Of a stretch of 62,291 nt of DNA, positions 3 through 52,418 are shown in pieces. The DNA comes from a virus (taxonomy: Duplodnaviria > Caudoviricetes): positions 1 to 62,291 of IMG/VR virus record IMGVR_UViG_3300036823_000041; one strand, written 5' to 3'. Made by a program: the position numbers and the translations under genes. The notes under the pieces are model-generated. The model was not told where the DNA came from and did no database searches. It saw only the letters and a program-made list of their open reading frames with translations. Each line of letters opens with the position of its first letter. Positions within the stretch are counted from its first letter, which is position 1.

Positions 3-632
3 CCGATCGACGGCTCGGCAACCAATAACCTCACCTTCACGGTGAGCTATCTCTTCGGCTGGTCCGACCCGGTGGTCTTTGTCCCGCGCAAGGGCGAACT
101 GGTTCCGAACGTCGAGGGCCGCAAGTGGTCTTTCGACGACCTGGCGCATGCCGACCTGCTCTACCTGCCGCAGCGGTACCCGGACAGCGAAGTCGAATCG
201 GACGCGGACCTGAATTGCAATCTCGTCGCATTCGGATACGACGGCGCCATCTACACGCTCACCGAGGGCCAGTACTTCGACAACGACCATACCGGCGCGC
301 AGATTGGCTATTTCTGGAACTGGGAGGAGGTGCTCGGCCCGTCGCAGTCCTTGAACCTGCTGCAACTCGGCGGCGCGACCGTCGGCTGCACCGGAGCGGG
401 AAGCATCAATGTCTACGCGCGCGGCGACCAGGGCGAGAAGATCCCGCTCTCGAATGCGATCGCTCAACTCCAGCTCGTCGCCGGCAAAGAGACGAACGCG
501 GATTTCTGGGCTCAGGATTATTCGACTCGCTTCGCGCTCGGCTACGACAATGGCGGCGTCGCCGGAGTCTGGTGCGAGCTCCACATGGCGATACTCTATC
601 AACGGGTCTGGGAACAACTGCGCAGCGGATAA
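3..632 (+). CDS. 5'-truncated tail/head-closure protein (tail tubular B / P22 gp10-like C-terminal part)
   Basis: Frame is open from base 3 (PIDGSATNNLTF...), so the gene starts upstream of the window. Beta-rich sequence sits directly before tail and ejection genes. The call rests mainly on synteny. Confidence 0.5.
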   Translation, partial: PIDGSATNNLTFTVSYLFGWSDPVVFVPRKGELVPNVEGRKWSFDDLAHADLLYLPQRYPDSEVESDADLNCNLVAFGYDGAIYTLTEGQYFDNDHTGAQIGYFWNWEEVLGPSQSLNLLQLGGATVGCTGAGSINVYARGDQGEKIPLSNAIAQLQLVAGKETNADFWAQDYSTRFALGYDNGGVAGVWCELHMAILYQRVWEQLRSG

Positions 633-638
633 GAATGC

Positions 639-2102
639 ATGGCTAAAAATAACGTCATCGTCACGTCGAAGATCGAGGCCGCCTCCGCGGGCAACATGCA
701 GCTCAAGGAGACGCTCTACCAGATTGCGAAGAATCTGCAGCTCTCGGCGACGGTTCAGAACACGAGCAACAAGAACACGCCCGGCGAAGCGGTCGCGACC
801 GTCTCGGCCCTGGGCTCGAGCTACATCGTGCAGCTCGTCCTGCCGGGCACGCTCTCGCCGACCTCTGTGCTCCAGGGCGTGCAGGCCGCGGCCGCGCAGA
901 CGCAGCAGTCGAATACGACCGGCATTACCGCGGTCTATCATCAGATCCAGGCTGCGACGACGCCACGCTTCGATGCTGGCTCAGACCTTCATCAGTACGG
1001 CGGCAATACCGGCTCGGTGCAGCTCTACTGGAACATCACCGATCTGCCGACCGGGCAGTATTACTTTCGCAGCCGCTCGAGCTTCGACGGACAGAACTGG
1101 AATCTGTGGAAGCTCGCGAATGGCGGCAAGCCAGTCGGCGGCCGCGGCGAGTCGGTCACCCAGGAGACGGTCGTCAACGGCGTCTCGGCGGTCTTCACCC
1201 TGCCGGGGAAAGAGCTCGTCGCCTTTGTCGCAGGACTGGCGAATAACGGCGACTCGTTCACCCTGCCCGAGAACCTCTACAGCTCGGCGATGATGGCGAT
1301 CGCCGGACCCAACGGCTACAAGGACACTGGCCACCCGTCGCACGGCGTGCAGGAGTGCGACATCCTCATTCAAGACCTGGGCGAGTCGACAACCGGGCCG
1401 GCCGATTTTCCGATAAGTGTTGGGATGCTTTACCAGGATGGCAGCGGGAACTCCTGGGCGGGCTCGGCGAATTTCTTCGCGTTCGCGTTCGATCCGCTCG
1501 GCACCAACGTCTCGCTCGTCGTCGCCGGGCTCACCAACTGGGCAGTCTTCACGCTCCCCGGCGGCGGCAAGATGGCAGTCGGCGCCGGCAACGCAGCCGA
1601 CGGGACGACGATTACCCTGCCGCCGAACTTCGCCTGGGCCGATGCGCAATTCGTAGCTTCCCCGCAGAACGGATACTCGGCGCCCAACGAAGCGCATGGC
1701 GTATTCGCGTGCAGCATCTCCGGCACGGGCGTCGTCTCGATGAGCTTCAAGGACGGAGTCGGCAACGTCTGGACCGGCACCGCGCAATACCTCGTCATCG
1801 CCTTTTCGCCGGGCCTGCTCGACGCGAGCGGCTTTCACGAGATCAATACGCCGGGCGGCTCCCAGGTCGCCATCGGCTCAGGCACCGCGGCGAGCGGTAC
1901 CGTCATAGGATTGCCCGCCGGTTACGATTGGTCGAAGGCGCTGGTATTCGTGACGCCTAGCAGCTTCGTCGATACGGGCCATCCGTTCCACGGCATCGCC
2001 AACTGCTCGGCCAACCGCGGCATAGTACAGGCCGTCTACCAGGACGGCGAAGGCAATACTTGGTACGCGGGCGTCAACTGGATGGTCTTCGCGTGGCAAT
2101 AG
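639..2102 (+). CDS. tail/fibre-like structural protein with three tandem C-terminal beta repeats
   Basis: 487 aa, Gly/Ser/Thr-rich. The motif H..HG...C...(Y/F)(Q/K)DG.GN.W occurs three times. Confidence 0.6.
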   Translation: MAKNNVIVTSKIEAASAGNMQLKETLYQIAKNLQLSATVQNTSNKNTPGEAVATVSALGSSYIVQLVLPGTLSPTSVLQGVQAAAAQTQQSNTTGITAVYHQIQAATTPRFDAGSDLHQYGGNTGSVQLYWNITDLPTGQYYFRSRSSFDGQNWNLWKLANGGKPVGGRGESVTQETVVNGVSAVFTLPGKELVAFVAGLANNGDSFTLPENLYSSAMMAIAGPNGYKDTGHPSHGVQECDILIQDLGESTTGPADFPISVGMLYQDGSGNSWAGSANFFAFAFDPLGTNVSLVVAGLTNWAVFTLPGGGKMAVGAGNAADGTTITLPPNFAWADAQFVASPQNGYSAPNEAHGVFACSISGTGVVSMSFKDGVGNVWTGTAQYLVIAFSPGLLDASGFHEINTPGGSQVAIGSGTAASGTVIGLPAGYDWSKALVFVTPSSFVDTGHPFHGIANCSANRGIVQAVYQDGEGNTWYAGVNWMVFAWQ

Positions 2103-2527
2103 ACCCGCTGCACTGGAGACGGCGATCGCACGGTATAACCTGGCGCATTGCGGTGCCGGCCGACGACGACAAGCTGCGCGAGATCCATGCGCAGAAAGGC
2201 CGCCGGCTCAACGACTCCGAACTGCCTAACCTGTTCGCGGCGCCGGTGCGCCTGACGCTGGTCGGCGAGGATGAGCACGGGGAGATCGTCTACGGCGCAT
2301 ATGTCGAGAACGTCGCGCATATTCGAGCTATCGGCGTGCATAGAAATGGCCTGCGATCGCTGCTCGGGCTCAGGTCGGTTTTCGTTGCGTTCCTGCGCTC
2401 CGCGGGGTACCGGCTCTGCAAGATCAATTTCAAGCGCCAGATGACCGCCGCGGTCCGCGGTCCGCTGATCGAAGCCGGTTTTCGCCCGGAGGATAAACAG
2501 GGGCCGAATTTCACCTTCAGGCTTTAG
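2060..2527 (+). CDS. GNAT-fold-like virion-module protein (start uncertain, possibly near 2135-2153)
   Basis: ITWRIAVPADDDKLREIH...LIEAGF pattern. Its position between tail and internal-protein genes is typical of podoviral GNAT-like genes. Confidence 0.45.
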   Translation: MVRGRQLDGLRVAIDPLHWRRRSHGITWRIAVPADDDKLREIHAQKGRRLNDSELPNLFAAPVRLTLVGEDEHGEIVYGAYVENVAHIRAIGVHRNGLRSLLGLRSVFVAFLRSAGYRLCKINFKRQMTAAVRGPLIEAGFRPEDKQGPNFTFRL

Positions 2528-2546
2528 GTAGCCCCGCCGGTCCGGT

Positions 2547-2559
2547 TTTTGGTATGAGT
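2547..2559 (+). promoter_or_regulatory. putative late promoter motif TTTTGGTATGAGT (copy 1)
   Basis: Intergenic 13-mer, identical at 45024, 54996 and 55580, with one mismatch at 60805. Confidence 0.7.
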
Positions 2560-2577
2560 TCCCGCGCGAGGGAATCT

Positions 2578-3144
2578 ATGGGCGGCGACGCTGGAACCGA
2601 CGCAGCAAAGAGCGAAAATTCAGACGCGACGGACTGGGAAAATACAGGAGTCGGCAGCTATAACGCGGACCTCGGCAGCTATATGTCGAACGTCAACTCG
2701 GCGCTCGCCGCGGGCAATCCCTATCAGACCACGGCCTATAAGACCGCGCAGAACCTCGAAACGTCGGGCGCGGCCAATTCCGAAGACACTGCCGCGAAGA
2801 CCGCGACCAGGGGCGCCGCCTTGCGCACCGGGCTCAACTCGGCAGCCGTCAACGCGCAGGACTCCGAGAACCGCCTGGCGCAGACGCGCAACATCGACAG
2901 CTTCAACGCGACGCGCGATACCGCCAACGACCAGGCATGGGAGCAGGAACGGCAGGGGCTCATGGGCCAGCAACTCGCCGGAGCCAACTCGCAGGCGGCG
3001 GCAGACGCGGCCTACGGCCAGCAACGCAGTTCCGCTACCAGCGGCCTACTGACGCAGCAGGAAGAAGAAGATCAGATGTGGGCAGGCCTCGGCGAGACGG
3101 CAATGAAGGGCGCCGGAGCCGGATTGACCGCAGCTTTCGCATAG
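2578..3144 (+). CDS. internal virion / ejection protein (small, Ala/Gln/Asn-rich)
   Basis: GAGGG SD before ATG 2578 (MGGDAG...). Helical low-complexity body and Gly/Ala-rich hydrophobic C-terminus. First gene of the ejection cluster. Confidence 0.6.
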   Translation: MGGDAGTDAAKSENSDATDWENTGVGSYNADLGSYMSNVNSALAAGNPYQTTAYKTAQNLETSGAANSEDTAAKTATRGAALRTGLNSAAVNAQDSENRLAQTRNIDSFNATRDTANDQAWEQERQGLMGQQLAGANSQAAADAAYGQQRSSATSGLLTQQEEEDQMWAGLGETAMKGAGAGLTAAFA

Positions 3145-3154
3145 GGAGGACACG

Positions 3155-4564
3155 ATGGCCGCAGCAGATGTCGTGCCTTTTGTCGACGACGACGAAGACG
3201 AGGAAGCGCAGGCGCTCTACAAGGGACCGTCCAAGAGCGAGGACGACGACGCCGATACCGGCAAGTCGCAAGGGACCAAGGGCGCCTATGGCCCGTCTGG
3301 CTCCGGCAAGAGCGGCGGCAGTTCGCAGATGCCGTCGACCGTCGACGCGCCCGCGTCGGATGACCCGGACGAACAGGATCTCGTCGCCCCGAAGTACACT
3401 GCGCCGGATCGCTCCGCGCTGCAGGCTGCGCAGGCCAAACAGTCGACCGACGCAACGGCGATCGACCGCAACGCTCCAGGCGTCAAGCCGACGTGGAAAG
3501 ACCGCTTGCTCGGTGGGCTCGCCGGATTCATGTCGCAGGACGCGGCCGGCGGCGCGAGCGTCACGAATCGGAAGTACAACCAGGCCGTCGCGCAGCAGAA
3601 GGCGAACCTCAGCGCCGATCAGACCGTCGTCAATACGGAGCAGTCGAAGCTCGAGGCCGAGGGCCAGGATTTCGAGCATCAGCTTCAGGCAAACCGCGGC
3701 CAGGTAGCGACGGCAAATGCCAACTCGCTCACTGGCGAGCGCGCCGCCAAGGCTGCGAAGTACGACGCCGCGATCGACCCGAAGTCGATCCATCAGAACG
3801 ACGACGGCGAATGGGAGGGCACGACCTACGGCGGCAAGACGGTCCCGGCATCGCCGCCGGCCGGATTCAATAAGCCGCTTCCGCAGCCGAAGACCTACGA
3901 GGAGCTCGTCTCTGCGTCCGAGAATCCGCAGTACTCGGACGACCAGCGCGCCGGCTTCAGGCGCGCCGCGAAGACCATCCAGGGAACTGAGGTCAAAAAG
4001 TTCCAATCGACCGCGCCGCGGCAATCCGACGAGGAGCTATGGATCGCTGCTTTCAAGCGCGACAACGGACGCGCCCCGAATGCCGACGAACTCGAGCAGC
4101 ACAGCACCCGCAAGAGCTCGGCCGCGAGCGGCCGCACCGCGCGCTCGATCGACGACAAGGCCGCGACCGCCTACCAGGCCATCGAGAAGCAGATTTCCGA
4201 CGGCGATCTCGACCCGAACGTGCCCGAGGATGCGGCCAAGATCAAGAAGGCGAAGCAGAACGTCGAGGACCAGCGCCATCAGGACATGACCGACATCGGC
4301 GTGCAGCACACCCGTTTCGTCTACGACGATGCCAACAAGGGCCACAACGAAGGACCCTCACGGCAGGGACCAGGCAGCCAGCAACGGCAGGCCGCGACGC
4401 CCCCGCAGCAGGGCGGACCAGGCAAAGCTCCCAGGCCTGGCGCGCCGATCGACCGCGCCGGCATTCAGCACTATCTGCAGATGGCGGGCGGCGACAAGGC
4501 GAAGGCCCGCGATCTCATCAAGGCCGACAATTGGACGATTCCGGTATCTGGGAAGAAGGGGTAA
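3155..4564 (+). CDS. ejection (DNA transfer) protein
   Basis: 469 aa, GGAGG SD, acidic N-terminus, LLGGLAGF hydrophobic patch and coiled segments. C-terminal motif IDRAGIQHYLQMAGGDKAKARDLIKADNW. Confidence 0.6.
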   Translation: MAAADVVPFVDDDEDEEAQALYKGPSKSEDDDADTGKSQGTKGAYGPSGSGKSGGSSQMPSTVDAPASDDPDEQDLVAPKYTAPDRSALQAAQAKQSTDATAIDRNAPGVKPTWKDRLLGGLAGFMSQDAAGGASVTNRKYNQAVAQQKANLSADQTVVNTEQSKLEAEGQDFEHQLQANRGQVATANANSLTGERAAKAAKYDAAIDPKSIHQNDDGEWEGTTYGGKTVPASPPAGFNKPLPQPKTYEELVSASENPQYSDDQRAGFRRAAKTIQGTEVKKFQSTAPRQSDEELWIAAFKRDNGRAPNADELEQHSTRKSSAASGRTARSIDDKAATAYQAIEKQISDGDLDPNVPEDAAKIKKAKQNVEDQRHQDMTDIGVQHTRFVYDDANKGHNEGPSRQGPGSQQRQAATPPQQGGPGKAPRPGAPIDRAGIQHYLQMAGGDKAKARDLIKADNWTIPVSGKKG

Positions 4565-4567
4565 GCC

Positions 4568-5302
4568 GTGCCGGATCTTCTCGACGACGTGCATGCCGAG
4601 CAGGCCGCCGGCGACAAAGGCGCAGCCGGCGCTCCGCAGCCCTTGCAGGATGCGACCCGCGACCTCGGCGTCCAGTACCGGCCTGCGTCGACTGACCCGA
4701 ACATCCAGCGCGATGCCGTTGCCGGCAGCGAGAACTCGATCGCCGGCGTCGAAGAAAACGAGCCGCGCCAGGTCGAAGTCAACGACGAGGAGAAGTTCGA
4801 GAACAATGCCGACCAGGTGGTGCCGCATGAGCTCTACCACGTATGGGCGAACAATCTGCCGCCATCGGTCAGGGCGAAGATCCCCGCGAGCACCCAGGCC
4901 GATTATGCCGAGCCGACCGTCGATAGCGTGAACGCGCTCCATCGCCAGGGCAAGACGCTGCTCGACCTGCCCGGAGAGCAAGGCGCGCAGCTCATGGCGT
5001 GGTCCGCGATGCACCCCGACGACCGCAAGGTGCAGGCGGCGATGAAGCCTTATCTCGACGACATGCGCAACACATCGCTCTCGGTGATCCAGGCGACCGG
5101 CCCGCACGATAAGCAGATCAACACCACGCCGCGGGCTCCTGCGGGTCCGCGCGACGACATCCCTGGGATGGAAGGATTCCACATCACGCCCGGCCAAAAT
5201 AAACTCATCCGGCGGCCCGTTGCCGAGCAGTACGTCGACAAGGCCAAAGGCAACCCCGCTGTCGCCCGCATCATGGCGGCGCACGACGGTCACAGGTTCT
5301 AA
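4568..5302 (+). CDS. putative virion cargo protein with zincin HExxH motif
   Basis: 244 aa with VVPHELYHVW and a downstream E (PGEQGA). N-terminus MPDLLDDV is shared with the giant protein, and the C-terminal motif is shared with the upstream protein. Confidence 0.6.
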   Translation: MPDLLDDVHAEQAAGDKGAAGAPQPLQDATRDLGVQYRPASTDPNIQRDAVAGSENSIAGVEENEPRQVEVNDEEKFENNADQVVPHELYHVWANNLPPSVRAKIPASTQADYAEPTVDSVNALHRQGKTLLDLPGEQGAQLMAWSAMHPDDRKVQAAMKPYLDDMRNTSLSVIQATGPHDKQINTTPRAPAGPRDDIPGMEGFHITPGQNKLIRRPVAEQYVDKAKGNPAVARIMAAHDGHRF

Positions 5303-8300
5303 ATGCCCGATCTTCTCGACGACGTAGCCAGCGACCACGCGCAGCCAGATCTGCTCGACGATGTCGCATCGCAGCAACAGCCCGACCAGGGAGACGCCGC
5401 GGCCGCGCAGCAGATGCGCGAGGGACCGCCGCCGACGGCGAAGGGTCCGAGTATCCCCGACCCAGGCATGCGCGAGGAGTCGGTCGGGCGCGCCGTCTTC
5501 GGACCGGCGCAGGGTGCGGTCGATGCGGTAAAGCAGGTTCCCGGCGTAGGACTGCTCGGCGGCAAGAAGCTCAACGACCCGCTCACCGGCACGATCGACA
5601 CCGAGAAGCGCGGCGCCGCGACGTTCAAAGAGGGCCTCGATCTGCTCGGCCCGGACAACTTCGCCGACAACTCGGCCGAGGGGTTCAAGCGGACCGCGCG
5701 CGGCTTTACCAAGCTGGCCGATGGCGCCATGACCATGAGCTCGCCGGCGCTGGCCGCCGAGATGGGCGGAAACCCGGCGTCGATCATCCCGATCGCGAAG
5801 GGCATCATTACCGGCTCGATCACTGGCGCGGCCGCGCAGAAGATCACCAAGGCCGCCGGATTCTCGCAGGATTACCAGGATCTCGCGAAGACCGTCGGCT
5901 TCTTCATCCCGACCGCCGCCGGCGCCATGTTTGGTGCGACTGAGTCGCCCGTGAAATTCGGTGAGGGCACCGGCACGGTAACGGACTACGCCGCGCCGAA
6001 AGGGGCAACCGGACCCGGAAGCGGGCGCGTTTCAACGTTCACCGGCTCGAACCCGCAGGAGTTCACCGCCGGCGCCAGGGTGGGCGGCCGGACCTTCGGC
6101 ATCCGCATACCTCGCGGAAGGGCGGCCGCACCGGGAGCGGCAGGCCCGGACGTGCTGCCACCCCCGCCGAGCCCCGGCATGGCCCAGGCGGCGTCGGACG
6201 CCAAGGCGGCGGCGGCGGCGCTCAATGCCGACCAAGCTGCCACCCAGGCGGCGCAGCGCACGCAGGCAGGCATTCCCCCGCCCGAGCCTCCAAAGCCGGC
6301 AGGGATGGACCAGGGCGAGCTGCGGCCGGGCACCGTAAGCGATGCCGCCAAGCTCATCCAGATGGCGCCCGAGAACATGCGCGGGCCGATGATGCTCGAG
6401 GCGCACGGCAACCTCACCAAGTGGCTCGCGACCAACGGCAAAGTCATCATGCCGGACGGCAAGATCCAGATCATCGACTCGCCGGACAAGGCCGCCAAGG
6501 TCGCCCAGGATCTGCTCAATTCCGAGGTCGATCGCCATCAGCAGGCATTCGAGCAGCAGAAGGCCGATCGCCAGAAGGCCGCCGAGGATGCCGCCAAGCA
6601 ACAGCAGGAAGGCGAAGAGGCCACCATCGAGCAGGCCGGGCAGCCGGGCGGCGAGGAGGAGGAGGAGAATCCGGTCGTCGCCAGGGCGCGGACGATTCTG
6701 GCCGCCAACGCAAATGCCCCGCAATCGCGCCAGCTTGCCCTCCTGCAGCGCCAGCTCCGCGTCGGCCCTGGGATGGCTAACCAGCTTCTACGCCAGGCGC
6801 AGGCCGGCAAAGCCGCCGCAATGGCAGGCGGTATGGTGGGAAGTTCGACCGAGCCGGTGACGCCCGAGCCGAATGAGCAGGTCGACGCGCAGATCCAGTC
6901 GCTCGCCAAAGGGACGGTCCCGGTCGTGTTTCTGCCGGAAGGCTCGAAATACAAGCCGGCGATCCCGCCGGGTATGAAGGCGATCAAGGTATCGGGCGCG
7001 GATACTCCGGGCGCCGGCACCTACGTCTACAACCCGACGAAGATCCAGGCCGCGGCGATCAAAGAGGCGGCCAAGAACGGCACGCACGGCGACCTGCTCG
7101 GCCACATCAACGACAAGGGCGCGATCACCGGCATGAAGGTGCCGGCAATTCTGCAGGCAAAGACTGCGGACGGCACGCCGATCCAGGAGTCGGTCGTCGA
7201 CGGCGCGAATCCGCAGGAGGTCCGCGACCAGGCCGCGGCGCTGCGCGAACGGCACCCCGACGCCCACATCCAGATCCGCCATCCCGAGGCCGCGCTCAAC
7301 GAACGGGACCATCTCATCGCCAGGAGCGAAACCGGCGGCGGCGACATCTTCGACCACATCGCGCAGGAGCGCGGGAAAGGAGAAAGCAATGCCGTACAAA
7401 AGCAAGGCACAGCAAGGGTACTTTCACAGCCCGGCAGGGAAGAAGGCAGTCGGAGCCAAGGTAGTGAAGGAGTTCGACCAGGCGAGCAAGGGGCAGAAAA
7501 ACCTGCCACAGCGCGCGCCGGCGAAGCGGAAGTAAATCCAGTCGAGGGAGGTCCACGGAAGCCAGAGCCAGCGGAGCGCCGGCAGGATACAGAACGGCGC
7601 CGGCGCGTCGCTGAAATGTCGCCCGAGGAGATGCGGCAGGAGCTCCAGACATCCGAGAAAACCGGCCTGCCCAACCGCCGGGCATTCGAGGAAGCCGCGG
7701 ACAAAGGCGCGGTCGGCATGTCGGACGCCGACGGGCTCAAGGCGTTCAATGATCGCTTCGGATACGAGAGCGGCGACAAGCTGCTCCGCGCCAAGGCCGA
7801 CGCGCTGCGCGAGGCTGGCGTCGAGGCGTATCACGACAAGGGCGACGAGTTCCTCTACCGCGGCGAAACCCCCGAGAAGCTGCGCGCCGGACTGGACAAA
7901 GCGCGGGACATTCTGCGGGACAAAATCATCGAGGTAAGGGGAGCGGATGGCACAACCAAACAGTTCAAGGGCGCAGACTTCAGCCACGGCACCGGCAAGG
8001 ACATCGCCGAAGCCGAACGCGGGCTCAAGCAGCACAAAGCCGAGCGAGAAGACCGCGGGGAACGGCGGCGTGGGGAGCTTCGAGGATTTAATGAGGCTGG
8101 ACCCGAAACAGGTCAAGAGCGTGAAGGTGCTGCCATCAAGAAAGGCGACGCCGGAGTCCGATTCAAAGACGACAAGGGAGTCGAACGAGCGGGCACGGTA
8201 GCGCACACCAACGAGCGCGTGACCCGGCTCCGGGCCAACGACGGCAAGGAATACACCGTCAAAACGGCCGGGCTCAAGCCTGCGGCGGACATTACGCCGG

Positions 8301-11300
8301 GCTCGATTGGCGAGCTGCACTCGTCGCAGATCCACCTGGCGCCGAAAGACTTCCAGTACAAAGTCTCAAACATTGGCGCCGAGGGCGTCTCGTCCTTACT
8401 CGAGGGCTCGGAGTGGAACCCGGATCTGTCGGGCATCGTGAGCGTCTGGCGAGATCCCGAGAACGGCAAGTTCTATGCCGTCAACGGACATCACCGCACC
8501 CAGAGGGCGCGCCAGACCGGCGGCCAGACCCTCGCCGTGCGGCACCTGGTCGCCGAGAACCGGGCCGAGGCGCGGGCAATCGGCGCGCTCCAGAACATCG
8601 CCGAGGGCCGCGGCACCGCGGTCGACGCCGCGAAGTTCCTCCGCGACTCCGGCATCTCGCTCGAGGATCTCGAGAAGAAGGGCATCTCGATGGGCGAGGC
8701 GACGGCGCAGAACGGCGTCGCGCTATCCCGCCTCGAGCAGTCCCTCTTCGATCGCGTGGCAACCGGCAAGCTGTCCGAGCGCAAGGGCATCGCCATCGGC
8801 AGGGCGACCGACAACCCGGCGACGCAGGAGGCGATCGTCAAGATGATCGACAAGGCCGAAGCCCGCGGACGCCATGTCTCAGACGCTACGGTGCAAGAGC
8901 TCGCCAGGTTCGCGGCTTCCGCCGGCGAGAAAGAGCAAACCGTCTCTTCCCTTTTTGGCGACCGAGTGGAGACGCAGAATCTCGCGCTCGAGAAGGCCGA
9001 GGCGTCGGCCTACGTGCAGAAGCAACTGCGGGCCGAGAAAAGCCTCTTCGGCGCCGTGTCGAGCGAAGCCAGGGCGAAGACGCTGGCCCGGACCGGCAAC
9101 AAGATTACGGCCGAGAAAAACGCGAAGGAATCCGAGGCTGCAATGCAGGCGCTTGAGGTGTACGATCGCCTGAGCGCGCGGCGCGGGCCGGTCGATGACC
9201 TGCTCAACCAGGCCGCAAAGGATCTCGCCGATGGCAAGCCAGCCGCCCGTACCAAGTCCGAACTCTACGACGGAATCCGAGCCGCAGTACGCGAATCTCT
9301 CGGCGGTGTCCAAGGAAAGAGTCCTCGGCGAAGCGCACCGAGTGCTGACCGACCATCGAACGTCACCCCGGAAAAAGAAGAAGATGGAGACGGACGACTC
9401 TCTGCCGAAGAACTAGAGGCCGTCGGCCAGAACGGCCTCGCCTTCTCGCTCGAGCGCCCGACCTTCACCCGCGACAACGGACCCGTCAATCCTCCGCTGA
9501 CTCCTGCCGACCCGTTCTATCTCAAGAGCTCCCGCGTGGTAGCGCAGAAGATGCGCGGTCCGATGAAGGGCACCGACCTCATCAAGATGCTCGAAAACGC
9601 CGGCGTCAAGGCGGACGAGCTGAAATGGACTGGCCTGCAGGATCTCGTCGGTGAGGCGAAGGTGACGCCGGACCAGGTCCGCGAGGTGCTGAATCAGGAC
9701 CGCGTTGAGCTGATCGAGGATCTCAAGGGCGACATCCACAAAGACAATCTGCCCGACGGCTGGAAGATTCAGCCGAACGAGGACGGCGACGGCTACGAGG
9801 TGCTCGACAATCGCGGCGTCATGGTCGGCGACGGCCCAGACCGCCAGTCTGCACTCGAGCAGGCGCAGCGACAGAACCGCGCCAAGACGGCTATCAGCGA
9901 CACGTCGAAGTACTCCGGCTATCAGCTCCGCGGCGGCGAGAACTACCGCGAGATGCTGATGCAGATGCCGGCGCAAAAGGCCGAGCCGACGGCGCAAGAG
10001 AAGGCGCTGCTCGCGGACATCGACGCGAAGTACGTCCCCCTGTCTAAGGAATGGACGGCGCTCAACGCCTCGAGCAGCTATGAGAAATACCTCGAGGCGG
10101 GCAGCACGATCGCGCCAGATATGGCCCGCAACCTGGCACGGACGCGCGAGATCGAAGACATTCAGGAACGGCTAATCGCGCAGCAAAAGAGGACCGAGGA
10201 CGCCATAGAGAAGCGAGAGAGCGCGGCGAACTATAAGTCGCCGCACTGGGATGAGCCGAACGTCCTCACCCACATTCGATTCAACGACCGCACCGATGCC
10301 GACGGCCGCAAGCTGCTGCATCTCGAAGAGGTTCAGAGCGACTGGCACCAGAAGGGCCGCGACAAGGGCTACCGCGAGGGAGGCGAGCAACTCGCCCCGC
10401 GACCGACGATTGCGCGCATAGAGAAGAAGGACGGCATCGAATGGATCGCCTACGACGAAGCCGGCAAACTGCTGACTCATGTCGGCGCCGGGACCGAACC
10501 GACCGAAGAAGGCGCCCGCGAGTACATGGCGCGCTATCTCAACCGGCGCGCAGACGAGCGAGATGCAGATATGCGCCAGGAGAACTACGACAAGGTGCCC
10601 GACGCACCATTCAAGAAGACCTGGCACGAGCTGGCGCTGCGCCGCATGCTGCGCTACGCCGCCGAGAACGGATACGACGGCCTGAGCTGGACGCCGGGCG
10701 AGAAGCAGGCCGAGCGGTACGACCTGAGCAAGCAGGTCGGCCAGATCGACTACACCCAGCACAACCGCCTCATCGTTCACGACACCGGCCGGAACGTCAT
10801 CCACAACCAGGTAGTGCCGGAAGAGAAGCTCGAGGACTACATCGGAAAAGAGGCGACGCGCAAGCTGCTCGAGACTGAGCCACGCAATCATTCTGGGCTC
10901 GGCTCGGCTTTCGAGAAGTCGCGGACCTTGACCTCGCCCGACCTGAAGCTCGGCGGCGAAGGGATGAAGGGCTTCTACGACAAGATCATCCCCGACTATC
11001 TCGGCAAGTACGGCAAGCAGTGGGGTGCAAAGGTTGGCGAGACGAAGCTATCCATCCCGCTCGACAAGATGCGCGACAAATATGCGTATGAAGGCCCAGA
11101 GCGCACTCGCCAGGAAGTAGAGGCCGCCGAGGATGATCCTCATTCCCTGGCGATCGTAAACATGCAGTCAAGAGCCGTGGCCGCGCTGATGCGTCGCAAT
11201 CGCTCATTCTCTGAAGCGATGGCCGAAGAGGGCAGCCACACGCTCGCGGAGTATTTCGGCGGCAAGATGGTCGAGCCCGAGGGGACCAAGACGCAGGTCG

Positions 11301-14300
11301 CACCTTACCTGCCCGTCACCGACGCCATGCGCAAGAGCGTGATGGAAGAGGGCCAGCCGCTATTCTCCCGCGCTAAGCTCGACGCCACGCCCGAGCAGCA
11401 GGCGCGCGCGCAGCGGCTCACCACGTCCGACCCGAAGTTCCCGTATCTCGACCGGCCCGGCATCGCCAAGCTCTACCAGAAGAACCTGCGCGGCGTCCTG
11501 CTCGAGGGCGAGTCGGCCACACTGCCCGGCTTTGAACCGCACGTCGAGGAACATGAGAAGTCGGCGGCCGAGGTATCGAGCGGCGCGCTCGAGCAACGCG
11601 GCGTGAAGGACATCTCGCGGGCGACGCGGGAGATCGAGCAGAAGTCGCCACTGTTCGAGGGCTCGGCCGCGAACGACCAGGGCGCTCTCTTTTCTCGCCC
11701 GAAGCCGCCGCAGCCAGGCACCGGCCAGGGCGGCCTCGACTTCAGCAAGGCGGTCGAGGGCTCCGGCTTTAAGGAGATGAGCGAATCGCGCAGGGAAGCC
11801 TTCCAGCACGATCTGCATTTTCGGGCCAGTTCGCAGAGCATCGACCGCAACCTGGCCGGCGCAAAGGTCACAGTCCACCCGCCGGCGCGCGAGGGAGCGG
11901 CGCCGTTGACCGAGATCAACGCCGACGCCTACGTCTCGCTGCGCAAGCTGCTCCCTGAGTTCCGCGAGGTGGAATGGGCCGGCGTCTATATCAACCCGAA
12001 ATCGACGCAGATCCTCTACAAGAAGCTGATGATTTCAGGCTCTCAGCGCGACGGGGCGATGGAGCTATTCAAGCAGCTATCGGCCGGCGAGACGCCGAGC
12101 GGGTCGCTCGTCATCGTCCGCGCGGATGCGACCCTGGCCGCCGCCCGCGAGGAGTTGGCTCATTCCTGGTGGAATGACAACGTTGCGAAGCACGAGGACG
12201 GCGAGAATGCCCTGCTCGAGCATCTCCACAACGCGCCGCAATTCCTGCAAGGGCTCAAGATCCTCGACCGCCAGGGCTATCCGATCGACCGGATGCCGCA
12301 CGGCACCCTGCTAAACGAGATCGTCTCGAAGATGCTGGCCGATGCCGGCGGCTCGTCGATGCCCCTTTCGCCTGCCGACGTCAAGGCGTTCCTGGGCCAG
12401 ATGCTCGACGTCTACGCCAACACTTTCAGCACTGTTACTTTGGAGAAGGCTTTCGACACTCTGCCGGAGATTGCGCCGGAAGCGAAGCGTATCCTTGACG
12501 ACTGGAGAGCACAACATGCCGACAATCAACGGGATGCACTTTCTGCCCGCGGACCCGAAGAAGGACACAGCCTTGCGACTACTCAAGGCGATGGCGCAAG
12601 CGGCACGCGAGGCCCGCCAGCGGGGCAAGACTCCGGTCTTCTTTTCAGCCGCGAAAGGCAGCCCGGCGAATCCCGAGGGCGAGACGAAGTAGCGCGCCAG
12701 CGCGACCTGCCCGACGAGGGCGCAGACGAGGAGATGTCGCCGCTCGACAACTTTGTCGGCGCGCTCACCGACTACATCCGCTCGGATTCCGAGCTCGATA
12801 CCGGCAAGCTGCAACGCGGCATTATGCGCGAGACGCGCGGCCAGATGGACCGCCGCATCGCGCAGACCGCGGTCGCGCTCGACAAGGACCGTATGCGGTG
12901 GGCCGGCCGGTCGCATGATGCTTTCCTGAAATTTGCCGACGCCGTCGAAAAGGTCGGCGGCTCGACGGTTGCAGACCTGGACCCGAAGGACCAGAAGCTC
13001 GCGCAATATTTTCAAGATCAGTACTGGAAGCGTATCGAGACAATCCGCGCGCTCAAGGAAGGCGCGCTCCAGGATCTCATCGAGAACTACATCTCGCACA
13101 ACTGGGAGCGGCCAGGCGTCGCCGAAAAGGCGTTCAAGCAGGTTTTCAGCGGGCGCCGTCCGTTCGCCGGCAGAGGCTCTTTCCTCAAGCAGCGCACCAT
13201 CCCCACCATTCGCGAGGGCATCGAGCTCGGCCTGCGGCCGAAGACCTGGAACCCGGTCGAGGATTTCCTGCACAAGATCCTCGAGATGGACCGCTTCATC
13301 ATGGGGCACCAAACGCTCATGGGCATGAAGCAGGCCGGTACCGCGAAGATGATTCGCGTCGGCGATCGCGCTCCCGACGGATGGCTGCAGCTCGACGACC
13401 GCATCGGCACCGTGCAGTCGAAGTCGGAGGACGGCGGCCTAGTGGTCCGCGGCCACTACTACGCGCCGGCAGATGCGGCGAAGCCGTTCAATAACTTTGT
13501 CTCGCGCGGCATCGCCGGCAGGTCGAACATCTACGACGCGCTGCGGTGGGCCAACAACAACATCAACGCCCTGCAGCTCGGCATCTCCTTCTTCCACGCC
13601 ATGACGACGACGAATAACGCGATCGCGTCGGATGTCGGATTGTCGATCCAGGAGATGTCGAAGGGCCAGGTCATCTCGGGCGCCGGTCGCATGGTGCGCG
13701 CCGTAACGATGGTCCCGTCCGTGGTGCAGACGTTCCGCAACGGCTCGAAGCTGATGGCCGAGTACCTTTCGCCCGGCTCTTATGAGAAGTTCGCGAAGGA
13801 GGCCGACGCGCTCGCTTCCGCCGGCGGTCGCGTCAAGATGGATGTCGTCCAGCCGAAGCCACTACTCCAGATCGTGAGCCATTTCCGCAACGGCGAAGTA
13901 TTCCGCGGCGCCGGCAAATCGCTCGGCTCGATCATCCACGCGACCACTTACCCCGTGCTCGAGTACTGGGTGCCGCGCATGAAGGTCGGCGCGTTCTACG
14001 CCGACGCTCATTCGGTGCTGAAGTACGCCAAAGACAAGAACTGGACTCCCGAGCGAACCAGGATGGAGATGCAAAAGGCCTGGGATTCGGCCGATCATCG
14101 TTTCGGCCAGGTGGTCTACGACAATCTGTTCTGGCATAAGGCTCTGCGCGACGTGCTGCAACTCTCGCAGCGCGCGGTCGGATGGAACTATGGAACGGCA
14201 GCCGGCGTCGGCGGCGCCATCCCAGAGGCGGCCAGGGCCGCAGGGCGCGTGGCTACCGGCGACGTGTCCGAGTTCGGTACCCTCTTCGGCCGCGCGATGT

Positions 14301-15253
14301 CCTTTGTGGTCGGCATGACGGTGGCGACCGGACTCATCGGCGCCCTGCTCGAATATCACTGGAACGGACACGGGCCGCGGTCCTCGAAAGACTTCTTTTA
14401 CCCGCAGCGGGCAGACGGCCAGCGCGTCAACGTCCCCGGCTACATGAAGGACGTCGTCGCGTTCGCGCACGCGCCGGTGCAGACCGTGCTCAATAAGCTG
14501 GCGCCGGTCTTCTCCACCCTCGCCGAGCTCTACCAGAACAAGGATTTCTATCGCGTGGAGATCCGGCACGCCGACGACAACTGGCTGCAGCAATCGGAAG
14601 ACACCGGCAAATTCCTCGCGAAGTCGCTCGAGCCTTTCAGTGTGAGCTCGCAGCAGAAGATGATCCAGAACCAGGGCGCCGGCGTCGACACGGGTGTCGG
14701 CGGGATGTGGCGCGCCGTGCTCACGCATCCCGAGGACGCGGTACTCGGCCAGCTTGGCTTTCAGCCAGCGGCGGCCTATGTCCAGAACACCCCGGCGCAA
14801 AACCTGGCCTACGAGTTTTCTGTCTCCAACTCGCCGCCCGGCACGCGCACCCAGGCGCAATTCGAACGGTCGCAGGTCAAGCAGGCGATCACGGCGATGC
14901 ACCGCGCGGGAAAGGTCGACACGGCGCAGATCAACGAATACATCCGCTCGGGCAAAATCACCCGGCACGACGCCGACCTCGCGGCGAAGAATGCGAAGGT
15001 CGACCCGCTGGTCGGCACCGTCAAGCACGGCGAGCTCACTCTGCCGCAGATGCTCGACGTCTTCGACAAGGGCAATGCGCGGGAGCGCAAGCTGCTCCGT
15101 CCGATCCTCGAGCGCAAGGCTCAAACCTACAGCGAGCCGGACCGGGAGCGCCGGCTCGCGGTCAAGGCGAAGCTGCGTCAGGCGCTCGGACACAATCCGC
15201 CGCCGGTCACCGACTCCGACTCTCTCTGGGAGACGATTTCAACGCACCGCTAA
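5303..15253 (+). CDS. giant polyvalent internal virion/ejection protein (FtsK-gamma-like, GGDEF-like, ParB-like, degenerate zincin, helical C-terminal region)
   Basis: 3316-aa ORF. LLQRQLRVG near aa 475; TGLPNRRAF...DADGLKAFNDRFGYESGDKLL...KGDEF at aa ~787-850; VNGHHR at aa ~1061; a conserved-looking LEEVQSDWHQKGR/PDAPFKK/GMKGFYD block; EELAH at aa ~2283; hydrophobic segment near the C-terminus. Confidence 0.85.
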   Translation: MPDLLDDVASDHAQPDLLDDVASQQQPDQGDAAAAQQMREGPPPTAKGPSIPDPGMREESVGRAVFGPAQGAVDAVKQVPGVGLLGGKKLNDPLTGTIDTEKRGAATFKEGLDLLGPDNFADNSAEGFKRTARGFTKLADGAMTMSSPALAAEMGGNPASIIPIAKGIITGSITGAAAQKITKAAGFSQDYQDLAKTVGFFIPTAAGAMFGATESPVKFGEGTGTVTDYAAPKGATGPGSGRVSTFTGSNPQEFTAGARVGGRTFGIRIPRGRAAAPGAAGPDVLPPPPSPGMAQAASDAKAAAAALNADQAATQAAQRTQAGIPPPEPPKPAGMDQGELRPGTVSDAAKLIQMAPENMRGPMMLEAHGNLTKWLATNGKVIMPDGKIQIIDSPDKAAKVAQDLLNSEVDRHQQAFEQQKADRQKAAEDAAKQQQEGEEATIEQAGQPGGEEEEENPVVARARTILAANANAPQSRQLALLQRQLRVGPGMANQLLRQAQAGKAAAMAGGMVGSSTEPVTPEPNEQVDAQIQSLAKGTVPVVFLPEGSKYKPAIPPGMKAIKVSGADTPGAGTYVYNPTKIQAAAIKEAAKNGTHGDLLGHINDKGAITGMKVPAILQAKTADGTPIQESVVDGANPQEVRDQAAALRERHPDAHIQIRHPEAALNERDHLIARSETGGGDIFDHIAQERGKGESNAVQKQGTARVLSQPGREEGSRSQGSEGVRPGEQGAEKPATARAGEAEVNPVEGGPRKPEPAERRQDTERRRRVAEMSPEEMRQELQTSEKTGLPNRRAFEEAADKGAVGMSDADGLKAFNDRFGYESGDKLLRAKADALREAGVEAYHDKGDEFLYRGETPEKLRAGLDKARDILRDKIIEVRGADGTTKQFKGADFSHGTGKDIAEAERGLKQHKAEREDRGERRRGELRGFNEAGPETGQEREGAAIKKGDAGVRFKDDKGVERAGTVAHTNERVTRLRANDGKEYTVKTAGLKPAADITPGSIGELHSSQIHLAPKDFQYKVSNIGAEGVSSLLEGSEWNPDLSGIVSVWRDPENGKFYAVNGHHRTQRARQTGGQTLAVRHLVAENRAEARAIGALQNIAEGRGTAVDAAKFLRDSGISLEDLEKKGISMGEATAQNGVALSRLEQSLFDRVATGKLSERKGIAIGRATDNPATQEAIVKMIDKAEARGRHVSDATVQELARFAASAGEKEQTVSSLFGDRVETQNLALEKAEASAYVQKQLRAEKSLFGAVSSEARAKTLARTGNKITAEKNAKESEAAMQALEVYDRLSARRGPVDDLLNQAAKDLADGKPAARTKSELYDGIRAAVRESLGGVQGKSPRRSAPSADRPSNVTPEKEEDGDGRLSAEELEAVGQNGLAFSLERPTFTRDNGPVNPPLTPADPFYLKSSRVVAQKMRGPMKGTDLIKMLENAGVKADELKWTGLQDLVGEAKVTPDQVREVLNQDRVELIEDLKGDIHKDNLPDGWKIQPNEDGDGYEVLDNRGVMVGDGPDRQSALEQAQRQNRAKTAISDTSKYSGYQLRGGENYREMLMQMPAQKAEPTAQEKALLADIDAKYVPLSKEWTALNASSSYEKYLEAGSTIAPDMARNLARTREIEDIQERLIAQQKRTEDAIEKRESAANYKSPHWDEPNVLTHIRFNDRTDADGRKLLHLEEVQSDWHQKGRDKGYREGGEQLAPRPTIARIEKKDGIEWIAYDEAGKLLTHVGAGTEPTEEGAREYMARYLNRRADERDADMRQENYDKVPDAPFKKTWHELALRRMLRYAAENGYDGLSWTPGEKQAERYDLSKQVGQIDYTQHNRLIVHDTGRNVIHNQVVPEEKLEDYIGKEATRKLLETEPRNHSGLGSAFEKSRTLTSPDLKLGGEGMKGFYDKIIPDYLGKYGKQWGAKVGETKLSIPLDKMRDKYAYEGPERTRQEVEAAEDDPHSLAIVNMQSRAVAALMRRNRSFSEAMAEEGSHTLAEYFGGKMVEPEGTKTQVAPYLPVTDAMRKSVMEEGQPLFSRAKLDATPEQQARAQRLTTSDPKFPYLDRPGIAKLYQKNLRGVLLEGESATLPGFEPHVEEHEKSAAEVSSGALEQRGVKDISRATREIEQKSPLFEGSAANDQGALFSRPKPPQPGTGQGGLDFSKAVEGSGFKEMSESRREAFQHDLHFRASSQSIDRNLAGAKVTVHPPAREGAAPLTEINADAYVSLRKLLPEFREVEWAGVYINPKSTQILYKKLMISGSQRDGAMELFKQLSAGETPSGSLVIVRADATLAAAREELAHSWWNDNVAKHEDGENALLEHLHNAPQFLQGLKILDRQGYPIDRMPHGTLLNEIVSKMLADAGGSSMPLSPADVKAFLGQMLDVYANTFSTVTLEKAFDTLPEIAPEAKRILDDWRAQHADNQRDALSARGPEEGHSLATTQGDGASGTRGPPAGQDSGLLFSRERQPGESRGRDEVARQRDLPDEGADEEMSPLDNFVGALTDYIRSDSELDTGKLQRGIMRETRGQMDRRIAQTAVALDKDRMRWAGRSHDAFLKFADAVEKVGGSTVADLDPKDQKLAQYFQDQYWKRIETIRALKEGALQDLIENYISHNWERPGVAEKAFKQVFSGRRPFAGRGSFLKQRTIPTIREGIELGLRPKTWNPVEDFLHKILEMDRFIMGHQTLMGMKQAGTAKMIRVGDRAPDGWLQLDDRIGTVQSKSEDGGLVVRGHYYAPADAAKPFNNFVSRGIAGRSNIYDALRWANNNINALQLGISFFHAMTTTNNAIASDVGLSIQEMSKGQVISGAGRMVRAVTMVPSVVQTFRNGSKLMAEYLSPGSYEKFAKEADALASAGGRVKMDVVQPKPLLQIVSHFRNGEVFRGAGKSLGSIIHATTYPVLEYWVPRMKVGAFYADAHSVLKYAKDKNWTPERTRMEMQKAWDSADHRFGQVVYDNLFWHKALRDVLQLSQRAVGWNYGTAAGVGGAIPEAARAAGRVATGDVSEFGTLFGRAMSFVVGMTVATGLIGALLEYHWNGHGPRSSKDFFYPQRADGQRVNVPGYMKDVVAFAHAPVQTVLNKLAPVFSTLAELYQNKDFYRVEIRHADDNWLQQSEDTGKFLAKSLEPFSVSSQQKMIQNQGAGVDTGVGGMWRAVLTHPEDAVLGQLGFQPAAAYVQNTPAQNLAYEFSVSNSPPGTRTQAQFERSQVKQAITAMHRAGKVDTAQINEYIRSGKITRHDADLAAKNAKVDPLVGTVKHGELTLPQMLDVFDKGNARERKLLRPILERKAQTYSEPDRERRLAVKAKLRQALGHNPPPVTDSDSLWETISTHR
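7389..7535 (+). CDS. nested +1-frame small basic protein, 48 aa (MPYKSKAQQGYFHSPAGKKAVGAKVVKEFDQASKGQKNLPQRAPAKRK)
   Basis: SD AAAGGAG 6 nt before ATG. Codons end mostly in G/C in this frame while the host frame turns atypical. From memory it resembles small phage proteins beginning MP(F/Y)KSxAQ. Too short for the supplied ORF track. Confidence 0.7.
   Translation: MPYKSKAQQGYFHSPAGKKAVGAKVVKEFDQASKGQKNLPQRAPAKRK
7947..8201 (+). CDS. nested +1-frame small protein, 84 aa, overlapping the end of the GGDEF-like module
   Basis: TAAGGGGAG just upstream of ATG. Protein-like core SFEDLMRLDPKQVKSVKVLP. Host-frame codons are atypical at about 8040-8200. Confidence 0.45.
   Translation: MAQPNSSRAQTSATAPARTSPKPNAGSSSTKPSEKTAGNGGVGSFEDLMRLDPKQVKSVKVLPSRKATPESDSKTTRESNERAR
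9231..9416 (+). CDS. nested +1-frame small protein, 61 aa, after the ParB-like module
   Basis: AAAGGA 8 nt before ATG. Helical-looking core YANLSAVSKERVLGEAHRVL. Host-frame codons are atypical at about 9270-9420. Confidence 0.5.
   Translation: MASQPPVPSPNSTTESEPQYANLSAVSKERVLGEAHRVLTDHRTSPRKKKKMETDDSLPKN
12516..12692 (+). CDS. nested +1-frame small protein, 58 aa (MPTINGMHFLPADPKKDTALRLLKAMAQAAREARQRGK...), after the zincin-like module
   Basis: GGAG 8 nt before ATG. Amphipathic helix. Host-frame codons are atypical at about 12420-12690. Confidence 0.6.
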   Translation: MPTINGMHFLPADPKKDTALRLLKAMAQAAREARQRGKTPVFFSAAKGSPANPEGETK

Positions 15254-47287: not shown

Positions 47288-47304
47288 AAAAACGAAGGAG
47301 CTCC

Positions 47305-51291: not shown

Positions 51292-52418
51292 TCCTGCTCG
51301 CGCTGCTCCTGATCCTGCCGCGATCGCTGATGCTCCAGAACGTCCAGGGCGCGAGCGGCGTGCGCGGCGTGGCGATCGGCAATCAGACCGGCGCAACCCC
51401 GCCAACTTCCGGGCTCATCTACTCGCCCGTCGCCGGCCACTACACCAGCGCGCAGAGCGTCGGCGTCACCTATAACCCGAGCTCGAGCGGCATCGCCGTC
51501 TTCTACACGCTCGACGGCTCGGCGCCATCCGCAGCCTCGGCGCGCTTTACCTCGAATCTTTCGATCTCGTCCAACACCACGATGAATACGTTGGCCGAGG
51601 CGATCGGCTCGGTGCGCCAGGAGACGCAGGCGACCGGCTCGCTCTGGAAAATCTGCACGCCGGTGGGCGGCGGTCCCGGCACGCCGACCTCGGTCAAATG
51701 CGGCGGCGTGGGATCGACGCAGCCCTCCGGCTGGACCGTGACCTATGGCGCGACGGAATCCATTTCCGTGTCCGCGACCTCCGGCGCGCCGCAGATCCTC
51801 ATCACGCTCGGCGGCTCCGGCTGCGACTCCTGCACCAACATCACGATGGACAAGTGGATTCAGCCACTCAATAATCCCAACCCGAACGTCGAGAACCACG
51901 AGCACGACGCCTGGCACAACAACGGCGCCGGCAACCGCCTCCATATGGGCGGCCTGCAGTGCAACCAGCAGACGGCCTTTCTGCAATGGCAGTACGACAA
52001 CGAGCAGGGCTCGTGGCAGAACCACGTGCCGGCGATCACCCAGGGATGCCCGCTCTCGACGACACTCTGGACGCACATCATCTGGAAATTGCACTGGTTG
52101 GGCGCAAGCGACGATGGCTGCGGCGACGGCCACTCTCCGAGCGTGCATGGCGGACTCGGCTGCACCTATTACGACTCGCTCTCGATCGGCACCGCGACCT
52201 CGCCGGCAGTCGGCGCCACCATGACCGCCTACGCCATCAACGCGACGCTCGAGAACGATAACCCTGGATGGGGCGGCGGCTGCGCCGACCAGGACCAGGT
52301 CGACCTGCGGCCGGGCGGAACCTTCCCGAAAACAGGCGGCGTCAAGGTCCAGCACAACAACGTGACATGCTCGACGGGCACAGTAGCAACGGCCTCGGCC
52401 GCGTACACGATTCCATAA
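51273..52418 (+). CDS. exported protein with chitobiase/Fn3-associated Ig-like domain and a beta-sandwich domain
   Basis: Hydrophobic N-terminus; SPVAGHYTSAQSV...FYTLDGSAPS...ISSNTTMNTLA; Cys-rich. Confidence 0.7.
   Translation: MLVQKLILLALLLILPRSLMLQNVQGASGVRGVAIGNQTGATPPTSGLIYSPVAGHYTSAQSVGVTYNPSSSGIAVFYTLDGSAPSAASARFTSNLSISSNTTMNTLAEAIGSVRQETQATGSLWKICTPVGGGPGTPTSVKCGGVGSTQPSGWTVTYGATESISVSATSGAPQILITLGGSGCDSCTNITMDKWIQPLNNPNPNVENHEHDAWHNNGAGNRLHMGGLQCNQQTAFLQWQYDNEQGSWQNHVPAITQGCPLSTTLWTHIIWKLHWLGASDDGCGDGHSPSVHGGLGCTYYDSLSIGTATSPAVGATMTAYAINATLENDNPGWGGGCADQDQVDLRPGGTFPKTGGVKVQHNNVTCSTGTVATASAAYTIP

Follow-up and report, generated by a model that had tools for sequence, protein, structure and literature searches.

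The 62,291-base linear virus record IMGVR_UViG_3300036823_000041 (estimated completeness 48%), the whole of which we call the window, carries three abutting + strand genes, encoding a 469-amino-acid (aa) protein (P0001, or A; 3155-4564), a 244-aa zincin-like protein (P0002, or B; 4568-5302) and a giant protein of 3316 aa (P0003, or C; 5303-15253). The giant starts with two copies of the peptide PDLLDDV, and we show that this tag is the present lineage's form of a tandem-paired N-terminal motif on giant phage proteins, a family-wide feature that has its own sequence in each lineage and whose two copies are kept alike by protein-level selection. In the clade of the window, a single copy of the tag also heads the small zincin-like protein just upstream.

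A paired peptide at the start of giant phage proteins

Within the window PDLLDDV is encoded three times (4571-4591, 5306-5326 and 5345-5365), once at the zincin start and twice at the giant start. A search with a 20-nucleotide tag pattern, allowing at most 3 mismatches, returned 3 matches against 0 in 100 shuffles, and no further copies were found elsewhere in the 62-kb record. The repeat at gene starts that a preliminary description of this DNA had pointed out is therefore real, and so are the 17 identical bases that it saw in common between zincin copy 1 and giant copy 2. The same holds for PDLLDDVAS occurring twice in the giant (aa 2-10 and aa 15-23) and for a similar DIFDHIA near aa 680, which we find at aa 681-687. 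The protein ends and starts that it quoted are correct except in two places: P0001 continues for seven residues (PVSGKKG) beyond the quoted end, ...NWTI, and the zincin start codon is GTG, not ATG. The features of the region are as follows.

3155-4564, + strand: P0001, protein A of 469 aa; the N-terminus of its family is acidic and conserved (VPFV.D.ED..); syntenic in loci L005 and L008
4430-4540, + strand: P0001 aa 426-462, helical-hairpin module at the C-terminus, with 7 more residues after it; hairpin hidden Markov model (HMM) E 3e-17, hhalign against the zincin hairpin 91%
4568-5302, + strand: P0002, zincin-like protein of 244 aa; GTG start 3 nucleotides past the P0001 stop; AlphaFold2 (AF2) model with a mean predicted local distance difference test score (pLDDT) of 74.7; best structural matches are to zinc metallopeptidases (top Z 8.0)
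4571-4591, + strand: tag copy 1 (PDLLDDV), zincin aa 2-8; 5/7 codons the same as in copy 2, including CTT (6% of Leu codons)
4826-4840, + strand: HELYH (HExxH) of the zincin, aa 87-91
5180-5299, + strand: zincin aa 205-244, C-terminal helical hairpin made of helices 216-225 and 230-239; the linker before it is of low confidence
5303-15253, + strand: P0003, giant multidomain protein of 3316 aa (polyvalent type); ATG directly after the P0002 stop
5306-5332, + strand: tag copy 2 (PDLLDDVAS), giant aa 2-10
5345-5371, + strand: tag copy 3 (PDLLDDVAS), giant aa 15-23; 3/9 codons match copy 2
7343-7363, + strand: internal tag-like DIFDHIA, giant aa 681-687, upstream of the GGDEF-like stretch; the orthologue in L005 has GGDIFDHIAQ too, at aa 749
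7661-7816, + strand: GGDEF-like stretch, giant aa 787-838; below the Pfam cut-off (22.4 bits against 23.8)
8282-9301, + strand: phrog_21-matching region, giant aa 994-1333; 27-33% identity to giants of the cultured Prochlorococcus phage P-SCSP1, Ruegeria phage 45A6 and two other records

Relatives of the giant were collected as 4 proteins through its N-terminal 420 aa and as 19 IMG/VR loci through one relative, P0026; L019 and L023 were dropped as near-duplicates of L015 and L021, and the giants of L012 and L015 were read from the first ATG and not from an upstream TTG. In the first 80 aa of each giant we looked for the two non-overlapping 8-mers most alike by BLOSUM62, and compared the score of this self-match with a threshold of 31. 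Of the 21 giants, 16 reached 31 or more. Among 890 internal 80-aa windows taken from these proteins as a control, 10 did so; the matches there were mostly Pro/Ala-rich runs and included one genuine internal tag pair. In all 16 paired giants the first copy starts at residue 2-8. The tags are 7-10 aa long and their sequences are all different, 16 motifs for 16 giants, among them TLDPSEV, DIFDQV, DLLDQIAD, PDLVSE[YF]E, QIVGEEPIP, IQ[LM]DETL, NQDFS.FF, NPFDDP.Y, KPFSYE.A, NW.DFTP and WEHVDSDP, each present twice. Further copies lie inside several giants, at aa 681 of P0003, aa 749 of P0024, aa 464 of P0026, twice from aa 507 of P0027, twice in L006 (around aa 485-505) and once in L008 (around aa 767); those of P0003, P0026 and P0027 are found a short way upstream of a conserved segment with which the GGDEF-like module begins.

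The copies of a pair are alike as protein to a degree that their codons do not follow. Over 13 loci and 106 residues identical between copies (Met and Trp excluded), 64 had the same codon and 42 a different one, with 49.4 identical codons expected from codon usage; in the giant of the window the same codon was used at 3 of 9 positions. The copies are therefore old at synonymous sites and have been kept identical as protein. With a length of 7-10 aa, 16 variants, low pLDDT in a modelled relative (P0036, below) and residue identity despite synonymous divergence, the tag is a short linear motif.

The sharing of the tag between zincin and giant was followed in the loci of the same clade. In the window the match (PDLLDDV) scores 35; in L004 the zincin starts MDALDEL and the giant has DALDDLV twice; in L005 the corresponding peptides are LHPDEV on the zincin and LDPSEV, twice, on the giant, a weaker likeness (L.P.EV) that falls below the score cut. 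The preliminary claim of one peptide tag on two proteins is thus borne out, and comparison with relatives indicates that the tag is functional. At the DNA level, zincin copy 1 and giant copy 2 have 5 of 7 codons in common, including CTT and GAT (25% of Asp codons), which fits either a more recent copy at the DNA level or a common preference at gene starts.

Some other starts of these proteins were also recorded. The giant of L014 opens (5204-5380) with a tandem unit of about 25 aa, FD[IV]AKARA..K.DTQIA.YL, which has a weak match to HTH_23 (E 0.008) and is not a short peptide; the hairpin HMM described below does not match it. The 3912-aa protein of Ruegeria phage 45A6 (L027, 6781-7050) starts with a helical-looking KFPQYDDLSDQQLADALH stretch and not with a tag pair. 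The acidic N-terminus of the P0001 family (VPFV.D.ED.D., 3155-3200 in the window) has a tag-like flavour, hydrophobic then acidic, in a different motif. A Pfam search at E <= 10 with the first 66 aa of the giant of the window gave one chance-level match only.

The zincin-like protein and the phage context of the giant

In the AF2 model of P0002 the HELYH motif lies inside a helix (81-95), and its His, Glu and His are kept in all covering rows of the family alignment A1. A further invariant residue, E137, in the helix 136-148, may be the third zinc ligand. VIA-align gave 6h56_B as the top match of the model (Z 8.0, root-mean-square deviation 4.0, 131 aligned residues), and zinc peptidases, aligned over residues 1-172, make up most of its 50 rows; a Z of 7-8 is, however, what unmatched models typically reach. 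Foldseek returned no match at E <= 0.001, and none of the curated models matched in Pfam (E <= 0.1) or PHROGs (E <= 0.01). As modelled, the core of the protein (residues 1-172) appears to resemble zinc metallopeptidases.

A profile search of 1.84 billion representatives collected 96 proteins of this zincin family at E <= 1e-3. Many of these are fused to other sequence, and tandem pairs are found in them too. Relatives with the zincin at the N-terminus and 150 aa or more of body number 32, of which 13 had a tandem pair at most 100 aa past the domain, compared with 4 of 94 later windows used as control, and when the zincin starts beyond residue 300 the pair is at the N-terminus of the protein (10 of 14). 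The order in fused relatives is zincin, pair, body, or else pair, body, zincin; that of the window is zincin, pair, body with the hairpin and a stop/start inserted. We refrain from calling the window a split version of the zincin-fused proteins, since the N-terminal domain of its giant showed no homology to the fused bodies at E <= 1e-3. AF2 modelled the zincin core of one fused relative, P0036, with confidence, and placed the pair (209-228) inside a segment (208-301) with pLDDT below 50, so that the pair is probably in a disordered stretch of that protein; as the pair is of low confidence, the model gives neither support for nor evidence against its docking in cis on the zincin cleft.

The zincin domain ends with a conserved segment, PLS...PT.P....IN[TM].PR.P..P. 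Stand-alone zincins stop just past it and fused ones run into the pair, and gene boundaries and fusions both fall at this segment. A scan of genome contigs found no zincin relatives and a metagenome scan found one 1.2-kb contig. Among the loci examined, only the window, L004 and L005 have the zincin; the P0001 family occurs in these three and in L008, and in no others.

The giant itself matched only GGDEF, below cut-off, and phrog_21 (6e-69), and its relatives P0024-P0027 are richer in precomputed family matches (PF00990, PF13563, PF13871, PF13872, PF18763, PF04851 and PF05175), with helicase, ParB-like, 2H-phosphoesterase and methylase families among those carried. Giants in 21 phage records share 27-33% identity with P0003 over aa 960-1340. 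In one of these phages, the cultured, T7-like Prochlorococcus phage P-SCSP1g, the gene of the homologous giant comes after those for the capsid, gp11 and gp12 and after three smaller ones; in T7 that position is occupied by the internal core proteins. Judged from these sequence relationships, P0003 is probably of the polyvalent (DarB-like) type, packaged with the DNA.

Three phages, the window (3-3144 onward), L005 and L008, have their genes here in one conserved order, with products of 903 aa, 488 aa and about 190 aa, then the P0001 family and the giant, and none of these proteins matched a named family or solved structure by sequence. Comparison by phmmer of the proteins of the window, L005 and L008 with the structural proteins of P-SCSP1g and Ruegeria phage 45A6 gave nothing at E <= 1, and DNA and protein searches of a cultured-phage collection (2500-8500; C-terminal 916 aa) gave no match. 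An atlas search with P0001 reached unnamed viral clusters only (score 0.89), to be taken as a lead only. Elsewhere in the window, positions 45053-52418 encode a 744-aa protein with a weak NosD-type beta-helix match, a 1328-aa protein whose start resembles a signal peptide and a 381-aa protein with a chitobiase C-terminal domain (E 4e-10); this is probably a tail spike or fibre block.

A helical hairpin at the C-termini

The preliminary description had also noticed an ungapped match between the C-termini of the 469-aa and 244-aa proteins. On single sequences this match is marginal: it has 9 of 31 residues identical and a BLOSUM62 score of 28, reached by 71 of 5000 shuffles of the last 60 aa, and it is not the best 31-mer between the whole of P0001 and P0002, where the best one was itself reached by 201 of 300 shuffles. 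Profiles show that the match is real. When 3 P0001-type ends were compared with 10 zincin ends, hhalign gave a probability of 91% (P 1e-6) over 35 columns, identifying the two as homologous helical hairpins. The hairpin parts of A and the zincin are 29% identical, and that of P0101, a zincin relative, is intermediate in sequence. No match to either hairpin was found in Pfam at E <= 10.

In the AF2 model of the zincin, the hairpin consists of the helices 216-225 and 230-239 and follows a linker of low confidence (174-181 and 190-207 with pLDDT below 50), into which some zincin relatives have a whole extra domain inserted. Because of these two helices after a low-confidence linker, and of the insertions there, we regard it as an independent end-module. 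It is present in 11 of the 96 zincin-family representatives, at the very end in 10 of these, and in 2 of 10 P0001-family proteins plus a fragment from L004. The other 8 P0001-family proteins lack it, 6 of them ending in one conserved SH3-like stretch and 2, including the outgroup P0023 of L008, in other beta-rich sequence. The hairpin HMM matched no frame of 15 further loci searched (L006-L024 without L019 and L023), the next best hit having an E of 2. It follows from this distribution that the hairpin of P0001 is a late replacement of an SH3-like end in the subclade of the window. As an end-module it is mobile and separate; in a subset of the zincins it is ancestral, and the one on P0001 is its homologue.

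Other variation was seen at these ends. Zincin hairpins finish with a near-invariant HDGH.F (window 5282-5299, aa 239-244), in which H239 is invariant and D240 and H242 are present in at least 90%; this could be a metal-binding or latency tail. The hairpin of P0001 does not have it and has ADNWTI. P0008, P0009, P0010 and P0013 carry between core and hairpin an inserted domain of about 110-150 aa, in two forms (P0008/P0009 and P0010/P0013), and sequence like it ends P0029, P0050 and P0095 (GEHLGKFDNP..ADAYA..LHNRG). Many zincin-family proteins (P0028, P0031, P0052, P0055, P0077, P0085) have short beta-rich SH3-like ends, so that the alternation of hairpin and SH3-like end recurs in a second protein family.

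The junction of hairpin, stop, start and tag occurs twice in tandem in the window, as had been noticed, with each hairpin followed by a gene that starts with the tag, and it is found in L004 as well. This double junction was most likely generated by recombination, with a segment spanning hairpin, stop, start and tag being copied from the zincin/giant boundary to the P0001/zincin boundary. Its halves have diverged unequally, the hairpins being 29% identical and the tags the same in 17 of 17 bases; the tag end must therefore have been homogenised or constrained since copying.

What the tags may do

We tentatively favour, at slightly less than an even chance, a role of the tags as docking or capsid-targeting peptides bound by one common, co-evolving and probably oligomeric phage partner. 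The tags would bring zincin and giant to this one partner during head assembly, two copies on the giant would give avidity, and modules found on several proteins would act as shared addresses and not as plug and socket. A wider version of the proposal we regard as possible but doubtful: that in many uncultured phages the lineage-specific, two-copy peptide is an address code, transferable to foreign cargo, which loads the giant multi-enzyme protein, and in some clades the products of further cargo genes, into the head through one co-evolving receptor, with the end-modules, hairpin or SH3-like, forming a second address layer.

Short terminal peptides or small helical end-modules address proteins to the interior of an HK97-type shell in encapsulins, through cargo-loading peptides, and in P22, where the scaffolding protein binds the coat by a helix-turn-helix end; unlike the tag, these are C-terminal, and they are unrelated to it in sequence. 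The closer likeness is to the targeting peptides at the N-termini of P1 DarB and of the internal proteins of T4 (the latter cited in PMC9024508). The T4 signal is removed by the prohead protease; it is single whereas the tag is paired, and the sequences are unrelated. It is a short N-terminal signal common to several internal proteins and able to carry foreign cargo. In P1, the first 30 residues of DarB are enough for a reporter to be loaded into capsids, and the Dar proteins enter in a fixed order, several depending on one another (PMC9024508, PMC12810830); PMC9024508 also reports no common N-terminal consensus among them. The likeness lies in a short N-terminal peptide on a giant protein; in DarB, of about 250 kDa and anti-restriction type, a peptide of under 30 residues loads the protein into the head. 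Here, in contrast, two genes have one motif and the giant carries it twice, and loading by the tag is putative. The packaging of polyvalent proteins and their processing by zincins have been proposed (Iyer et al. 2017, PMC5512222), and the giants appear to resemble these proteins in their size and many domains, in the helicase, ParB-like and 2H-phosphoesterase families of relatives, in the GGDEF-like stretch and in the associated, putative HExxH peptidase. Neither the paired N-terminal peptides nor the C-terminal hairpin were found mentioned in that article, supplements aside. Literature searches, again with supplements aside, brought up no such pairs on proteins of this kind; the supplements of PMC5512222 may contain relevant alignments. 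N-terminal capsid-targeting signals are known from few model phages, T4 (cited in PMC9024508) and P1 DarB, and the tag pairs are a putative form of such docking or capsid-targeting signals.

Several observations weigh against a docking role. The partner, its binding and the docking function are all putative. Five of the 21 giants are without a pair (L013, L016, L017, L020 and, at this cut, L018), and by eye there is no pair in the first 90 aa of the giants of two cultured relatives inspected, P-SCSP1g and Ruegeria phage 45A6, nor a tandem pair or similar motif in the first 70 aa of P1 DarB and DdrB. Outside the clade of the window the lineage motif is found on no neighbouring gene start: among the loci with a clear pair (14 of 18, self-score at least 25), a strong match to a neighbouring gene occurs in the window only, the remaining matches being internal to the giant or weak (24-26) in unlikely frames, and a tag common to several genes is thus local, not general. 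That the proteins of the window are in the virion is presumed from synteny, namely the same-strand block and the position of the giant in P-SCSP1g, and the structural genes of the window matched no named family in sequence searches of PHROGs, Pfam and the PDB. Finally, the close association of the pair with the protease domain fits a role in cleavage equally well.

In such a role the motifs would be sites that the zincin or a prohead protease recognises or cuts, separating the modules of a polyprotein. We think it unlikely, but take it seriously as a rival, since in fused proteins the pair lies close against the protease domain, directly after it in the 13 of 32 counted above against 4 of 94; and it could be combined with targeting if the peptide is later removed, as in T4. 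The internal copies shortly upstream of the GGDEF-like module in P0003, P0026 and P0027 would suit it too, and so would the proposal in PMC5512222 that zincin-like peptidases process polyvalent proteins, P1 DdrB being one that is processed. However, a site at residues 2-8 would free a tiny peptide only, each lineage would need a different specificity, and in proteins with a C-terminal zincin the pair is some 750 aa away at the N-terminus. Moreover, the A1 zincin profile matched no frame of the 15 further loci, where most giants are paired.

The preliminary description had proposed a chain, in which each C-terminal hairpin is the receptor for the N-terminal peptide of the next protein and A, B and C are joined head to tail. 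The hairpins of A and B are indeed homologous, each directly precedes a gene starting with the tag, in L004 likewise, the hairpin has basic residues where the tag is acidic, and an A with the hairpin goes with a DLLDDV-type zincin start in 3 of 3 cases. Nevertheless we find the chain improbable, its receptor half not being supported by the distribution of the hairpin. The hairpin is absent from the 15 further loci, most of whose giants are paired, from all but 11 of the 96 zincin relatives, and from A in 8 of 10 family members, including that of L005, where B keeps its tag. In L005 and 5 further relatives of P0001 protein A ends SH3-like and the zincin is still N-terminally tagged, and in L008 A abuts the giant directly, with neither zincin nor hairpin. 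Between the window and L005 the zincin hairpin differs by few residues, yet the tag of the giant changes from PDLLDDVAS to TLDPSEV. An SH3-like end goes with an LHPDEVEDQ-type start in 2 of 2 cases, one pairing being indirect; because there are only two clades, these co-occurrences (3/3 and 2/2) amount to one evolutionary event. A complex prediction of the zincin hairpin (aa 198-244, A1) with the first 45 aa of the giant scored 0.04 and 0.02 against a mark of 0.32 in a run without controls; this is not evidence either way.

The motifs might instead act after ejection, by recruiting a periplasmic or cytoplasmic hub protein of the host that pulls the giant in or positions it, much as the disordered translocation domains of colicins recruit host hubs. 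They are short and paired, most of them mix aromatic or large hydrophobic residues with acidic ones, often with Pro or Gly, in a low-complexity N-terminus, and their lineage specificity could track the host. We give this little credence, since no host partner is indicated, the extreme diversity of the motifs suits a fast co-evolving phage partner at least as well, and the tag on the zincin would be left unexplained. Least of all do we believe that the copies are a functionless by-product of recombination or gene conversion at module boundaries: the 17 identical bases between zincin copy 1 and giant copy 2, with their CTT and GAT codons, and the subclade of the window, where the end of A and the start of B both differ from the sister clade and one copied junction suffices, would agree with it, but the pairs are protein-identical with synonymous sites largely randomised and recur as 16 different sequences in 16 of 21 giants, and a single recent copy cannot explain both halves of a junction whose hairpins are only 29% identical.

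The order of zincin, tag pair and body is kept whether these are fused or split, which aids the reading of the architecture of giant phage proteins. If the tags do act as docking or capsid-targeting peptides, they would make it possible to predict from sequence which proteins uncultured phages package and inject, their receptor would be findable through co-variation, and they would provide a design rule for loading foreign proteins into phage heads.

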